DNA of 64,000 nucleotides from a virus (IMGVR_UViG_3300035520_000484:98993-162992); one strand, 5' to 3'. Shown: positions 35,780-64,000, counted from the first letter of the stretch. Made by a program: numbers and translations. The notes: generated from the sequence alone by a model not told the origin.

Positions 35780-36616
35780 TTACTTTTTCTGACATTCTTT
35801 CAATTTTATATAAAGTTCACGTTCTTTCTTACTAAGTTTAGTAGGCATTACTAAATTTAATTTAATATAAAGATCAGCTCCAGAAACTAATCCATGATTA
35901 GCAATTCGGAACTTTTTATCAGGACTAGTACCTGCTGGAATATTTATCTTTAATTTAGTTCCTTTTAATGTAGGAATTTCAGCAGATGTTCCAAGTACTA
36001 AATCAGGAATTGTTATATCTAAAGTATATATTAAATTGAAAAGTGAATTTTCAAAATCCTTATGAGGAAGAATATTAAAATCAATTAAGATATTACAATC
36101 AGGAGTAGAATACGCATTTTGTAGATTAAGAGGATCTAATACTACAGATATTGTTCTAATTTCAGATTCTCCACATCTACCTGTGCCATGACAATGTTTA
36201 CAAGTGGTTTCTGTAATGGCTATACCAAATGGAGTTTTAGTTTGACTACGTTCCATTCCAGTACCATTACAATGTTTACACTTATCTTTACCAATAGAAT
36301 ATTGTACTTCTTTAGTAACTTTATTATAAAGATCTTCAAGAGTACAATTTAAAGTAACCTTTACAGTAGGTTTAGAAGGTCTGTTATGTAATCCGAAAGG
36401 ATCAAACATTGTAGGAGGATTATCATAATCAGCTCGTTTTTCCTCATTTCCTAACGTTTCATAAGCTTCAGAAATTTCTCGAAATTTCTCTTCAGCTTCA
36501 GGATTATCAGGATTTCTATCGGGATGATATTTTTTACTTAAATTACGATAAGCCTTTTTAATTTCGTCTTGAGTAGCAGTTTTGTTTACTCCAAGAATTT
36601 CATAATAATCTTTCAT
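35780..36616 (-). CDS. DnaJ-like co-chaperone (J domain plus Cys-rich zinc finger). Its ATG overlaps the TGA of the recoded gene upstream (ATGA).
   Basis: DYYEILGV...[26 protein letters not shown] is a J domain with [11 protein letters not shown]...CKHCHGTG are CxxCxGxG repeats. Confidence 0.8.
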
Positions 36617-38577
36617 ACTAAATTATTTGTCTATTCTGGTGCTTCATATACATAGTCTCTTAATAGTTTTCCTAAATACTCTTCATCAAAAGTATTTCTT
36701 AATCTATTAAAAGAGGGTGAGTCATAATAAGTATCAATAAATTGCTGAGGTGTTAAATTAAGTTCATTCATCTTTATGATATGAGGTTCTAATTCACCTC
36801 TACCTTCAGTACCTATTATTTCTCCTTTTTTATTTCGACCGATTCTTAATATATAATCAAGATACTCATCCTATCCAGGTTCCTTATTTGGAAGAAGGTG
36901 ATTTCTAGCATCTTTTAAAAGATTTGTATTATGTTTCTAGAACAAATTTAAATCCCAAGCATGACCAAATTCATGTAATAACGCTTCTTCTAAGGAAGTT
37001 GCCCCATCATTAATAGCTGGTTCTGCTGTAGAAATAACAATATTTGCTCCAGATTCTTCAGGTAATTTCTAAGTAAATGCAGATAATTTACGATTAGGAA
37101 CAAAAGCAATATGAGTATTATTTAATATCTATGTTGCTTTATTAATAATAGCTTGTCTCTAATCCTTAAATCCAGCACGAATTAATCTTCTAGCATAGTC
37201 ACCTGAATTAAGATAATCAATTACTTTCTATTTTTGAGGATCAATTATAGCTTCTTGTACTTCTTTAGATACAGAAGGAGCAATATAATTTTCACCAACA
37301 TCATTATGAGTTACTACATATTCAGAAGTATCATAATTTTTATTATGTATATCTCTTAAATCATCAAGAGTAAGATTCTATTTATATTCAGGATTGATTA
37401 CGGATGCAGTAAACCCTTCAGGAGAATCATTAGAAAGTACAACTCTAGGCTTAAATTCGCCTGTATATAGACTATGCTAGAAACCTATTGGAGTTTCATT
37501 CTTACTAAGTGACATACCAAATGAAGGTTCAGTAGTCATAAATGACGTATATCCATCTCCTTCAAAGTTATTAGTATAATACCAATTTGGATTCTTTTGA
37601 TTAGCTGTAAGTACGTCCTGAACATTTACTTTTAACTCGGGATATTCCCAATTTAATCCTTTATAAAAATCAGGATTAGTATATCTATCCCAAGCTCCAT
37701 AATCATATCCTGCATTTATAGGAGCTGTATTATTACTATAAGTCCAAACTCCCTTATGGACACTCATATTCTTATTTTCAGGATTAGATAAGATTTTAGA
37801 AACAACAGGTGATCCTTCTTCTACAAAATGTAATCCCATATCAGTTCCTTTAGAAGCTTCCAATGTACCATTAAGTACTTTAGAATCAGAAACATGTTCT
37901 ATAGGAATATTAAAAAGATGAGCATCTTTAACATCATTATTAATTTGTCTTGCTAAATTAGAATATTCCATCTATTTCCTTATCCAAGGAATTTCAATAG
38001 AACTAGGATTAGTTCTAGTTAATGGAATAAAACTTAATGCCGTTAAAGCAGCATTTCCATAAGTAGGATTTTTTAGAAATTCCTTTCCATTATGATATAC
38101 TCCTGCTCCAGTAAGTGCTAAATTAGCTGTAGTACCTAACCATTTAGGTGCCCCAATTAAATCAAGCCAAGTAGAAGGAGTTAGTGCTGCATCAACTACA
38201 GGTAATGCATAATATAAACCACCTGCTGCGGCAGCTCCAGCAGCCTAAGTACCTAGAAAAGTTAACCAACTATTCTAATCAAACTATTTATGAACACGTT
38301 CATCGGCTTTAGCTTGTCTTATTTCCTCAGCATCAGCTTTTTCTAACTAATTACCAGAATTAGGAGTAACTCCTTTATCTAAATAATATTCAGATAAATT
38401 ATTTCCTGAAATAGGTAATTCTGTTTCATCATCTACATAAATCTAGTAATTAGGATCAGATAACATTACTGTTTGCCAAGGTAATTCTTTACCATTTACA
38501 TCTATTACATTAGAATTAGTATTCCAATAAGAAGAATCAATTTGAGATATAGGAACAATACGAGCTTTCTTTTTCAT
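36613..38577 (-). CDS. Late protein with about 17 in-frame TAG codons (read as Gln). N-terminal Gly/Ala-rich hydrophobic domain paralogous to gene 60045-62030; C-terminal zincin-like metalloprotease domain (HEFGH).
   Basis: With TAG as sense, the frame is open for about 655 codons from ATG 38577 to TGA 36613-36615. The N-terminal domain aligns to the paralogue with TAG opposite CAA (Gln). HEFGHAWD provides an HExxH motif. The ORF track sees only the 164-aa fragment 37477-37971. Confidence 0.7.
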
Positions 38578-38864
38578 ACCTCTGATTTAAAATTATATCC
38601 AAATCCAAGTCTAGTTGTAAGGTACTTAGCATACTCTCCCAATTTCTTACGAAGTTGAGATACCTTATTACTCACAGCTAAATTACTAATCTTTTTATTC
38701 CATACATTATCTATTAATTCTTCTCTCGTGAATACTCTATCTTTATTTAATAAGAAAAACATTAAAAGATAGTATTCTGATTTGGTAAGTTTTATATCTT
38801 TATTATTGATATAACATACCTTTTCATCATCGTTTATTTCTAATTCTTTAAATGTAATATTCAT
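38574..38864 (-). CDS. Winged-helix DNA-binding protein (OmpR/PhoB C-terminal domain-like), standalone.
   Basis: LTKSEYYLLMFFLLNKDRVFTREELIDNVWN matches the trans_reg_C wHTH. Its TGA overlaps the ATG of the downstream recoded gene. Confidence 0.5.
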   Translation of the reverse strand: MNITFKELEINDDEKVCYINNKDIKLTKSEYYLLMFFLLNKDRVFTREELIDNVWNKKISNLAVSNKVSQLRKKLGEYAKYLTTRLGFGYNFKSEV

Positions 38865-39012
38865 GGTAGTTTAAATAAAAAGTGTGAAGCTTCCATCCTT
38901 CACATGTCCATTTAACTTTATTTTGAAATAGGATAAAATATCTTCTTTCAAGGAAAGTTTCTTAACCTATCGCAAGGCATGGCTCTATTTCAACCTCGAA
39001 CTGGATTTTATA

Positions 39013-39085
39013 AATAGGACTCTATTAAGGACTCGAACCTTAACGTTAATGTTCACCAAATTGAACTAGAGTACGAGAAAAGTCC
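39013..39085 (-). ncRNA. tRNA-like element: acceptor stem, D-arm-like hairpin and canonical T-arm, but no recognisable anticodon arm.
   Basis: T-arm TAAGG-TTCGAGT-CCTTA. Acceptor GGACTTT / AGAGTCC. Hairpin GTTC-AATTTGGT-GAAC. Total length too short for a full cloverleaf. Confidence 0.3.
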
Positions 39086-62230: not shown

Positions 62231-62247
62231 TTTCTTTATAAATTCAA

Positions 62248-62805
62248 TTAATTTCTACATTGTATAAAATCTAACAATAATAGTTCTTTATCAGTAGTTG
62301 CTTCAGAATTATGTTTCTTAGCAAACCACCAAGGCCAAAAACAATATTTAGAGTTCATAGATGAAATATACTAATCATAAAAAGATTCATCATAAGGAGA
62401 TTCATATAATCTTTTCCAATCAAACTTTCTAGTAAATTGCCAGAAAGTAATATTAGGAAAGGTTTCAATTATATATTTAATAAAATCAACAAATAAATTT
62501 TCTTGTCGACTATCTTCTTTAGATGTTTCTAGAATTAATCTAATAGTACATCCACCCATATCATTTAAATATTTAAAATAATCAACTACATTACCTTTAT
62601 ATTTAGCTATCCCATGACAGAAATAAGGATTCATATGTTTATCAAATCTGATTCTAAAATCAAAATCCCTAATTCCATATTGTTCATATTGTTGTGCTAT
62701 AGTTTTAGATTGACATTTAGCTATCCAATTAAATGGATAAATCCACCAATTTTTTAAAGGTAGATATGTAGCTGAATTATGAGTTCCTATTCTCATTAGA
62801 TACAA
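62248..62805 (-). CDS. PLC-like phosphodiesterase (PI-PLC X-domain-like). One in-frame TAG.
   Basis: MRIGTHNSATY resembles the PI-PLC active-site motif PGTHDS. A second His sits in FCHGIAKY. Reading continues through TAG at 62371 to TAA at 62248. Confidence 0.4.
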
Positions 62806-63053
62806 AGAGCTGACCAGCCAACTTGAGAACCAACTAAAGCTAAAACTGCATCAACTAATAGCATCTTCCATGTAGGAACTGAATCAAAATCTGAGGATTT
62901 AACTTTATGGAAATATCCTACTAACATAGAAAGAATAAATCCAACTATCATAGCAACTGCTACTACTCCTGTATTAGCAAGAATACCTGCTGAAACAAGT
63001 GCTGTTGCTAATGTAAAAATCATATTATTCTGTACTTTTGTATTTTTAAACAT
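62796..63053 (-). CDS. Small membrane protein (2-3 TM), holin candidate.
   Basis: 85 aa, hydrophobic segments IFTLATALVSAGILANTGVVAVAMIVGFILSMLVGYF and LLVDAVLALVGSQVGW. Sits between muralytic and phosphodiesterase genes. Confidence 0.45.
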   Translation of the reverse strand: MFKNTKVQNNMIFTLATALVSAGILANTGVVAVAMIVGFILSMLVGYFHKVKSSDFDSVPTWKMLLVDAVLALVGSQVGWSALCI

Positions 63054-63059
63054 AGTTTT

Positions 63060-64000
63060 TTATTTATTATAATTTAAAGAATTTTGTAAAATCTTTGCTC
63101 TTTTTGATACATTCATAACTCTATCATAATACCCATTTGCATTATTCCATCCTGATACTGCTTTTTGTATATTCATACCTCTATCTAGATAATTTCTAGA
63201 TAATATAAACATAGTAGCAATTGCAGCTTTTACAGGATCAAATAAAGAGTCTTTAGTAATCCCATATCTTCTAAATAATTCTTTAGTGGTTTTGTCTAGG
63301 TTAGATAATCTAATTTGTGTTAAACCTATAGAATTATTATCTCCATTAATTCCATATGTTTTATATTTAGAATATACATCAGGAGAACTTGCACTTCCCA
63401 TTCCAAAAACTTTGTGCGCTACTTTATTTCCAAACCTTGCTAAATTATCAATAGCAGTATGTTGTTTACCATAATTAGACTCAACGCCTAATATACCTAA
63501 GGCTGCCTAAGCTAATTGAATATAGGTATCATTATTAATACCTAATTCTTTCTAAATCATAGTTTTATATCTAATTAATCCTTTAGAAAAATCAGTATAT
63601 ACTTTCTTTTGATGATCATCAAGTCCTTTTGTACTAAAATGAATAGTTTTAATAGGAGTGTAATCTTTTTCATGATGACTTGGAGTTAAATTAAGATCAT
63701 GAGATTTAAAAGAAAGTTTTCCATTTCTAACAGCAAATTTATTATCTGAATTTACAGGTAGAATATATGTAGGCACATTCTCGTATCCTTTCAATAAATT
63801 ATTTAGTGTTTGTAGATCTTCTTTTGATAACCCTGTGCATCCATTAGTATTAGCACCTACAACACCAACATCACCAACATCACGTGCATGTATAGAAGAA
63901 GGTATACCTTTTGGATTATTTTTGTCTACCATAGCTTGAGTCCTTCTTATAAATGAAGGTGCCCCGCCATAAGAACCACTACGAGTAGTAAAATAAACAC
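63060..64000 (-). CDS. Muralytic protein with a C-terminal soluble lytic transglycosylase (SLT)-like domain. Partial; continues past the window end. Three or more in-frame TAG codons.
   Basis: ...LGVESNYGKQHTA...GSASSPDVYSKYKTYGINGDNNSIGLTQIRLSN... has the ES catalytic motif and GLTQI (compare GLMQI). The frame is open upstream to position 64000. Confidence 0.55.

Follow-up and report, generated by a model that had tools for sequence, protein, structure and literature searches.

The 64-kilobase (kb) stretch of viral DNA IMGVR_UViG_3300035520_000484:98993-162992, referred to here as the window, has a guanine-cytosine (GC) content of 30% and carries nearly every gene on its minus strand. Twelve minus-strand genes need TAG as a sense codon to be intact: one stands alone at 36613-38577, and the others lie between 54691 and the window end. 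An amber-suppressor transfer RNA (tRNA) with the anticodon CUA is encoded on the plus strand at 54118-54192. The window appears to be part of a large AT-rich tailed-phage genome in which two genetic codes would be used side by side.

The region from 1 to 36 kb encodes a DNA polymerase, a sigma factor, a ligase, a ribonucleotide reductase, exonucleases, a primase, DnaB, and another helicase. Standard-code open reading frames (ORFs) of at least 100 codons, scored in 4-kb bins, cover 0.83-0.97 of most bins up to 36 kb and 0.75 of one. Coverage drops to 0.45 at 36-40 kb and to 0.11 at 56-60 kb; reading TAG as sense restores it to 0.82 and 1.00, while reading TGA as sense gives no such gain in either bin. 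From 38.6 to 54.7 kb, genes follow the standard code without recoding. A preliminary description of this DNA had seen minus-strand coding with sparse standard ORFs at 36.6-38.6 and 54.7-64 kb, which the coverage values bear out. It had placed recoding across the entire range 36613-64000; that range holds for 36613-38577 and from 54691 onwards, and fails for the 38.6-54.7 kb between them.

The recoded genes

Gene calls in the recoded set started at the first ATG and allowed no stops other than TAA and TGA. All 12 have their 3' end inside the window and stop with TAA or TGA. The isolated gene (36613-38577, minus strand) has 654 codons, 15 of them TAG, and a TGA stop. The N-terminal domain of its product is paralogous to that of the protein encoded at 60045-62030, and there is an HExxH motif in its C-terminal part.

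The remaining genes form a block on the same strand. Nearest to the suppressor tRNA lies a gene for a protein with an N-terminal LysM domain (54691-55449; 252 amino acids (aa), 4 TAG, TAA stop), followed by a gene of 133 aa with a single TAG (55563-55964) and by one of 354 aa with 9 TAG and the motif NIAKESP(TAG)YLQQI (55952-57016). A second HExxH protein is encoded at 57006-57758 (250 aa, 5 TAG) and is weakly similar to parts of proteins from two other loci, L006 and L028. The gene at 57758-59263 encodes an ORFan of 501 aa with 15 TAG from the first ATG; its stop-to-stop frame reaches 59296 and holds 17 TAG, and its 3' end forms a TAATG overlap. A homologue search found nothing detectable for this protein and four other recoded proteins. 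Further along are a gene of 258 aa with 2 TAG (59269-60045) and one of 661 aa with 10 TAG and a TAA stop (60045-62030), whose family has both standard-code and TAG-recoded members.

A small membrane protein that looks like a holin is encoded at 62030-62260 (76 aa, one TAG at codon 2), and Pfam gave no match for it. The block continues with a gene of 182 aa and one TAG (62248-62796) and a small multi-pass membrane protein of 85 aa whose gene has no TAG (62796-63053). It reaches the window end with a gene for a protein with an SLT lytic-transglycosylase domain (63060-64000; 2 TAG), whose 5' end lies beyond the window; a PDB sequence search with this protein gave no match. In most recoded genes, the first TAG sits early.

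TAG as a sense codon

In these 12 genes TAG acts as a sense codon, and the early genes avoid it internally. Across 3,696 codons, the recoded set holds 65 in-frame TAG (1.76%) and neither TAA nor TGA in frame, whereas the 34 confidently called genes of the 1-36 kb region hold no internal TAG in 7,671 codons. Off-frame TAG is similarly frequent in both sets, at 30 per 1,000 in the recoded and 25 per 1,000 in the early genes. The recoded set makes up 32.5% of the codons, so the probability that all 65 TAG would fall there is about 0.325^65, or roughly 1e-32. Frames uninterrupted by TAA or TGA extend to 662 codons, compared with 207 for the longest one in 300 shuffles, and off-frame TAA is twice as common as TAG. 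Four gene junctions are TAATG stop/start overlaps, which argues for TAA as a genuine stop and for correctly placed gene boundaries.

Homology runs through the TAG sites. The 36613-38577 protein aligns in frame across a TAG site with the database proteins P0017 and P0018, and the 55952-57016 protein does so with P0019, P0020, and P0021 at 36-47% identity. For the 60045-62030 protein, 16 database proteins and 30 metagenomic or viral loci give alignments that stay in frame past TAG sites; the C-terminus of this protein coincides with those of its homologues, and its TAA is therefore a real end. The family of this protein (the 60045 family; loci L004-L033, from viral and metagenome contigs) comprises 10 distinct sequences without TAG and at least 13 with 6-41 TAG. 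Because the same family occurs in the standard code and in code 15, its code state must be labile. The family domain can stand by itself; often it is joined to SLT or lysozyme domains, and the fusion proteins, which may also contain HExxH domains, span 1,100-1,900 aa.

These results agree with most of what the preliminary description had proposed: continuous TAG-sense genes that all end in TAA or TGA (the longest has 661 codons, and its figure of 17 TAG applies to the stop-to-stop frame of 57758-59263), TAA and TGA kept as stops, and early genes free of in-frame TAG. It had also suggested comparing homologues at the TAG sites, where alignments indeed continue in frame.

TAG as a stop in the standard-code genes

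Outside the recoded genes, TAG still terminates translation units. Among standard-code genes of at least 60 codons, those of the early region (1-36.6 kb) end in TAA 38 times, TGA 15 times, and TAG 6 times, and those of the middle region in TAA 15 times, TGA 6 times, and TAG once. The seven TAG-terminated genes are a GIY-YIG endonuclease gene on the minus strand (433-1134) and the genes at 20863-21384, 22356-23369, 29844-30167, 31150-31539, 34857-35147, and 41321-41587. Read-through to the next TAA or TGA would add 1-26 residues to each, and this is the lengthening that an active suppressor would impose on the TAG-terminated early genes. The dual meaning of TAG within one genome fits both a temporal switch and a host that uses the standard code.

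The amino acid at TAG

Glutamine (Gln, Q) is the best-fitting amino acid at TAG, an assignment well supported by the alignments. The most direct comparison lies within the window itself. The N-terminal domains of the 36613-38577 and 60045-62030 proteins share about 60% identity across 126 aligned columns, and the four TAG codons of the former face CAA, TAG, CAA, and CAA in the latter. On the minus strand, these pairs are TAG 38347-38349 with CAA 61875-61877, TAG 38284-38286 with TAG 61812-61814, TAG 38275-38277 with CAA 61803-61805, and TAG 38245-38247 with CAA 61773-61775. The three TAG/Gln pairs reported in the preliminary description are thus confirmed in the DNA, with one position corrected by a base, from 38246-38248 to 38245-38247.

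Comparison with relatives points the same way. In the nearly invariant sequence NIAKESP-x-Y, the TAG of the 55952-57016 gene stands opposite genuine CAA or CAG Gln codons in P0020 and P0021 and opposite TAG in P0019, and three more TAG sites of the 60045-62030 gene correspond to Gln or TAG in relatives. Summed over the 13 confidently aligned TAG sites of the window, a Codetta-like profile score gives 9.8 nats for Gln, 3.6 for lysine (Lys, K), 2.9 for asparagine (N), and 2.1 for glutamate (Glu, E). The recoded relatives in the 60045 family contribute 127 TAG sites; with a profile built from standard-code family members only and read at the TAG columns of recoded members, the same ranking emerges more strongly (Q 130.9, K 51.6, N 33.3, E 12.3 nats). 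Gln accounts for 22.9% of the standard-code residues opposite the relatives' TAG, against a background of 3.9%. In P0001 and P0011, TAG occupies columns where the family has invariant Gln, as in ES(TAG)SDWA(TAG) and R(TAG)LQEN. Gln thus ranks first both in the window profile, where its lead is good but short of overwhelming, and in the relatives, where it is overwhelming; Gln is the amino acid that the preliminary description had proposed.

One source of error had to be removed from this comparison. For P0001, P0011, P0018, and P0019-P0021, translation of their DNA with table 11 fails to give the database proteins, and the mismatching Q residues are TAG codons, 7-38 in each, showing that the source had predicted these proteins in code 15. 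A database Q can itself be a TAG, and counting it as evidence for TAG = Gln is therefore circular unless the DNA is checked. Residues opposite TAG were accordingly tallied from DNA, and a tally from database proteins was discarded. Anyone repeating the analysis should bear in mind that public protein collections translate some such contigs in code 15.

The suppressor tRNA and its cassette

The suppressor tRNA at 54118-54192 on the plus strand was called by ARAGORN and scores 52.8 bits with the Rfam tRNA model. It folds into a class I cloverleaf with a short variable loop, an ordinary D-loop containing GG, and the T-loop GTTCGAG; it has U1.G72, G2-C71, G10, and A73, and CCA is not encoded. This shape excludes the class II isotypes (Ser, Leu, and bacterial Tyr). 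The identity set of E. coli tRNA-Gln includes U1 with a weak 1-72 pair, G2-C71, G10, and U35, and the suppressor matches it at U1, G2-C71, and G10.

Assigning the isotype by overall similarity was uninformative, the top match being a tRNA-Arg(UCU). This gene (11565-11637) lies on the closest syntenic relative of the window, the metagenome contig L002 described below, and is the closest match because the two tRNAs share their T-arm: they are identical over 20 nucleotides (nt) covering the variable region and T-arm (AATAACAGTTCGAGTCTGTT), and their acceptor and anticodon arms differ. Recombination between phage tRNA genes, or their common descent, could lie behind the shared stretch. The recoded relatives L006, L026, and L028 each have a tRNA(CUA) as well, placed on the strand opposite their recoded genes and carrying U1, G2-C71, and A73.

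Around the suppressor lies a standard-code, TAG-free cassette on the plus strand (53181-54475). It consists of a winged-helix/RepL-like gene (53181-53618) conserved in L013, an acidic ORF (53700-54089), the tRNA, and a small ORF (54194-54475) that is conserved beside the suppressor tRNA in L028. A promoter-like site of the Bacteroidetes type, TTTG-N19-TATATTTG, occupies 53131-53161 on the plus strand and ends 20 nt before the 53181 gene; it is a consensus match only. The hairpin GTGGGAA-TCT-TTCCCAC (54096-54112, plus strand) lies 5 nt upstream of the tRNA. A hairpin stands 5-10 nt 5' of the tRNA(CUA) in the window and in L028 and L006, which are distant recoded relatives, and a T-run after it in L028 makes it terminator-like; such a hairpin just 5' of the tRNA is reported for L006, L026, and L028 alike. 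Its role might be that of an attenuator, or the suppressor might be processed there.

An Rfam search around the tRNA gave no ribozyme or other element, with the coverage of theta ribozymes in that release being uncertain, and a scan of the cassette's surroundings for sigma-70 promoters and terminators gave no more than chance. At 54640-54690, an imperfect 13-bp hairpin (ACCCGACATGGAA / TTCCGTGCCGGGT) lies between A-runs and T-runs. Placed between the converging cassette and the last recoded gene, it resembles a terminator acting in both directions and went uncalled in the terminator scan.

Gene roles and transcription

The recoded set includes the LysM protein, the SLT-domain protein, two small membrane proteins, two HExxH proteins, and several orphans. 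In two large recoded contigs, a member of the 60045 family and a recoded gene that faintly matches the P22 portal in Pfam are about 9 kb apart. An AlphaFold model of the family member P0011 reached a mean predicted local distance difference test score (pLDDT) of 82 and had no significant PDB fold match. From the LysM and SLT domains, the membrane proteins, and the portal context in relatives, it is reasonable to infer that the recoded genes are late, lysis, or virion-associated genes.

The Bacteroidetes-type motif (TTTG, 17-21 nt, TAnnTTTG) occurs 8 times in the window against 3.1 expected, a count reached in 2 of 100 shuffles, and 7 of the 8 sites stand just 5' of gene or tRNA starts. Besides the site before the suppressor cassette, they include 1152-1183, 13043-13073, 14209-14240, 23389-23419, 40590-40620, and 47714-47744 on the minus strand. 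The motif is absent from the coding strand of the recoded block. These sites hint at a Bacteroidota host and at a different mode of transcription for the recoded block, possibly through a phage sigma factor; an RpoD-like sigma factor is encoded in the standard-code module (2837-3691, minus strand). An OmpR/PhoB-type winged-helix gene (38574-38864, minus strand) lies directly upstream of the isolated recoded gene, and a homologue of it lies near the matching recoded gene of L002.

In the proposed mechanism, the standard code would serve the replication or early module at 1-36 kb, the middle region with its many tRNAs, and the small cassette on the plus strand. Genetic code 15, with TAG as Gln and TAA and TGA as stops, would serve the isolated gene at 36613-38577 and the block running from 54691 to the end of the window, which includes genes for wall-binding and wall-cleaving proteins and for membrane proteins of holin-like appearance. 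Decoding would depend on the phage's own tRNA(CUA), presumably charged through the host glutamine pathway. Full-length recoded proteins would then appear only after the suppressor tRNA has built up, and the code switch would gate late or lytic functions. This timing model is taken from Borges et al. (bioRxiv 10.1101/2021.08.26.457843). The label "late" and the timing are what we infer, because the window contains no capsid, tail, terminase, release-factor, or aminoacyl-tRNA synthetase (aaRS) gene.

Weighing the interpretations

A genome with two codes, in which TAG means Gln in late genes and the phage tRNA(CUA) decodes it, is in our judgment very probable. Several observations weigh against it. 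On the side of the tRNA, the suppressor is not especially similar to tRNA-Gln overall (its best match, at 69%, is the L002 tRNA-Arg(UCU)), and it has A73 and a U1.G72 wobble instead of U1-A72. The host-type promoter-like site on its cassette fits early rather than delayed expression. On the side of gene content, the ORFs scanned in the window include no release factor or aaRS, and no capsid, portal, tail, or terminase gene lies within its 64 kb. On the side of the amino acid, the window by itself offers 13-15 sites for separating Gln from Glu and Lys, and a cruder window-only BLOSUM tally puts Glu a close second (23.8 for Gln, 19.8 for Glu). One TAG (DPNY-TAG-IY) faces Glu in three homologues, a conserved Ala stands opposite one TAG, and early versus late amino-acid composition does not separate Gln from Glu or Lys.

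The strongest competitor accepts TAG as Gln and dispenses with a timing switch, the suppressor being made from the start of infection. Recoding would then have other causes, such as drift in an AT-rich genome after gain of the tRNA, a guard against these genes being switched on in the wrong cell, or competition with phages infecting the same cell. We regard these possibilities, taken together, as unlikely. They draw on the suppressor cassette itself, which is written in the standard code and has a consensus host-type promoter-like site, and on the occurrence of homologous genes in code 11 and code 15 in different phages, a sign of a labile code state. The sharp division between modules, from no internal TAG in the early codons to 1.76% in the late genes, argues against them, as do the retention of TAG as a stop in early genes and the early position of the first TAG in most recoded genes. 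A like pattern across many independent lineages also favours timing (bioRxiv 10.1101/2021.08.26.457843).

Reading of TAG as Glu, or as a mixture of Gln and Glu, would arise if the suppressor were charged through the route of glutamyl-tRNA synthetase and amidotransferase and, with its U1.G72 pair, were poorly amidated. This is very unlikely. The close second place of Glu in the BLOSUM tally lends it some support, along with several window TAG sites that face Glu in homologues at 30-47% identity, the lower Glu content of late than of early genes (5.55% versus 7.8%), and the U1.G72 pair in place of U1-A72. The more discriminating comparisons favour Gln: Glu ranks fourth in the window profile, all three informative sites of the 60%-identical paralogue alignment face Gln, and in relatives TAG sits in invariant Gln columns, with 12 nats for Glu against 131 for Gln. 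The acceptor stem, with U1 and G2-C71, is also unlike that of bacterial tRNA-Glu, which has G1-C72 and U2-A71. The promoter motifs suggest a host phylum of the Bacteroidetes type, and this phylum has glutaminyl-tRNA synthetase.

That the TAG-containing frames are decaying pseudogenes or assembly or sequencing artefacts is effectively refuted. Most recoded proteins lack a Pfam or PHROG match and one lacks any homologue, which would suit such an origin, but the frames are broken by TAG alone, 65 times and never by TAA or TGA; homology runs past the TAG sites, and TAG positions are common to relatives; and the genes are tightly coupled by TAATG overlaps and accompanied by a matching suppressor tRNA. 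Pyrrolysine, suggested by nothing except the "Pyl" label that ARAGORN gives to any CUA anticodon, is likewise effectively refuted, since TAG aligns with Gln and makes up 1.8% of codons in the recoded genes, the tRNA is an ordinary cloverleaf lacking the 6-bp anticodon stem and tiny D-loop that make pylT atypical, and no pylS or pylBCD-like gene occurs among the ORFs scanned.

Beyond the two-code reading with TAG as Gln, a more ambitious picture can be drawn and is at present doubtful. It sees the window as part of an undescribed phage lineage of about 165 kb, probably infecting Bacteroidota, whose switch is carried by a conserved antisense cassette (host-type promoter, winged-helix regulator, acidic ORF, hairpin, tRNA(CUA), and small ORF). 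The recoded genes would supply a wall-attacking, probably injected cargo made almost entirely of orphans, with the hairpin and the winged-helix protein setting the timing.

Relatives and known code-15 phages

The closest syntenic relative is L002, the unannotated ENA metagenome contig ERZ27232899 k141_317347 (164.5 kb), compared over 18.8 kb of its length. It is syntenic with 31.5-40.3 kb of the window at 30-64% amino-acid identity and has a homologue of the isolated gene 36613-38577 with 14 in-frame TAG, the only heavily recoded gene nearby, its neighbours having none or one. Local gene order around this recoded gene differs between L002 and the window. The DnaB protein of the window has an exact match in one short Logan contig from SRR11794512.

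Searches against GenBank phages gave no match by megablast with 54-64 kb of the window, nothing useful by blastn with the suppressor tRNA, and no match by tblastn with a TAG-free segment of 214 aa from the 60045 family. The DNA polymerase of the window is at most 35% identical to that of any GenBank phage, and its best matches are unrelated phages. A single-protein scan of IMG/VR found nothing, and a family alignment used as the query found matches.

Recoding of this kind is well documented. Many lineages combine a replication module in the standard code with recoded late or lysis genes and a phage suppressor tRNA (bioRxiv 10.1101/2021.08.26.457843; PMC9523058; PMC10607447). Code-15 gut phages include crAss-like phages and the Lak, Garnet, Amethyst, Jade, Sapphire, and Agate clades (bioRxiv 10.1101/2021.08.26.457843; PMC9523058), and in crAss-like phages the reading of TAG as Gln has been verified by mass spectrometry (PMC9523058). 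The window shares with these phages in-frame TAG in a subset of genes, standard-code replication genes, a phage tRNA(CUA), low GC content, recoded genes that are probably lysis-related, and close relatives of the same gene family that use code 11. Their recoded modules can also be split, as here between 36.6 kb and 54.7 kb onwards. The window differs in that no "code change module" with release factor 2 (RF2) or aaRS was found, and the suppressor lies in a small antisense cassette with a winged-helix protein.

The window cannot be tied to a named code-15 clade because it contains no terminase or capsid gene. The preliminary description had compared it with the recoding lifestyle of crAss-like and other gut phages. 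Code-15 recoding stands, and the crAss-like link does not, no similarity having been found: nothing in the sequence speaks for membership, an exclusion that is not absolute since the capsid, portal, and terminase genes lie outside the window. Another comparison is offered by phAss-1 (proposed Phassvirus), a gut phage of more than 100 kb in which about 28% of ORFs are interrupted by TAG and which has tRNA-Sup(CTA) genes (Babkin et al. 2023, PMC10607447). It likewise lacks a dedicated aaRS, and its reading of TAG as Gln was deduced from alignments (PMC10607447). It shows no nucleotide similarity to the window and no protein match for the 60045 family, and it has three suppressor tRNAs where the window shows one.

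The window adds one more independent lineage to the code-switching phages and leaves the current picture of phage recoding unchanged. Its value lies in being a clean case, with TAG both a working stop (seven early or middle genes) and a sense codon (12 probably late genes) in one genome. A standard-code annotation would fragment the genes over about 11 kb and miss an entire module, so gene calling for such a phage genome needs code 15 or a mixed code. The compact suppressor-tRNA cassette is a candidate for tests of regulation.

Further elements of the window

The genes for the DNA polymerase (1-2831) and for the large ribonucleotide reductase subunit (10447-14804), both on the minus strand, are apparently split by homing-endonuclease genes, of the GIY-YIG type at 427-1134 and at 12088-12963 and of the HNH type at 13608-14165. 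The reductase ORF at 10447-12039 matches only the C-terminal half of its family profile, and no group I intron was found at the Rfam threshold. Another HNH gene lies at 39306-40286.

Tandem hammerhead ribozymes occupy 50331-50503 on the minus strand, one of the RAGATH-1 class (50429-50503, 76.7 bits) and one of type III (50331-50387, 49.8 bits). Both exceed the Rfam gathering scores. They lie just upstream of a 51-codon ORF (50151-50306) and adjoin a GC-richer stretch at 50.5-50.8 kb that appears non-coding.

Five tRNAs are loosely arrayed at 40404-46388 on the minus strand: Leu(UAA), Arg(UCU), "Ser(AGA)", Ile(UAU), and Gln(UUG). Of these, "Ser(AGA)" is a weak assignment at 31.8 bits, and its anticodon is unusual. 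The array mostly reads A-ending codons, which are favoured in an AT-rich genome.

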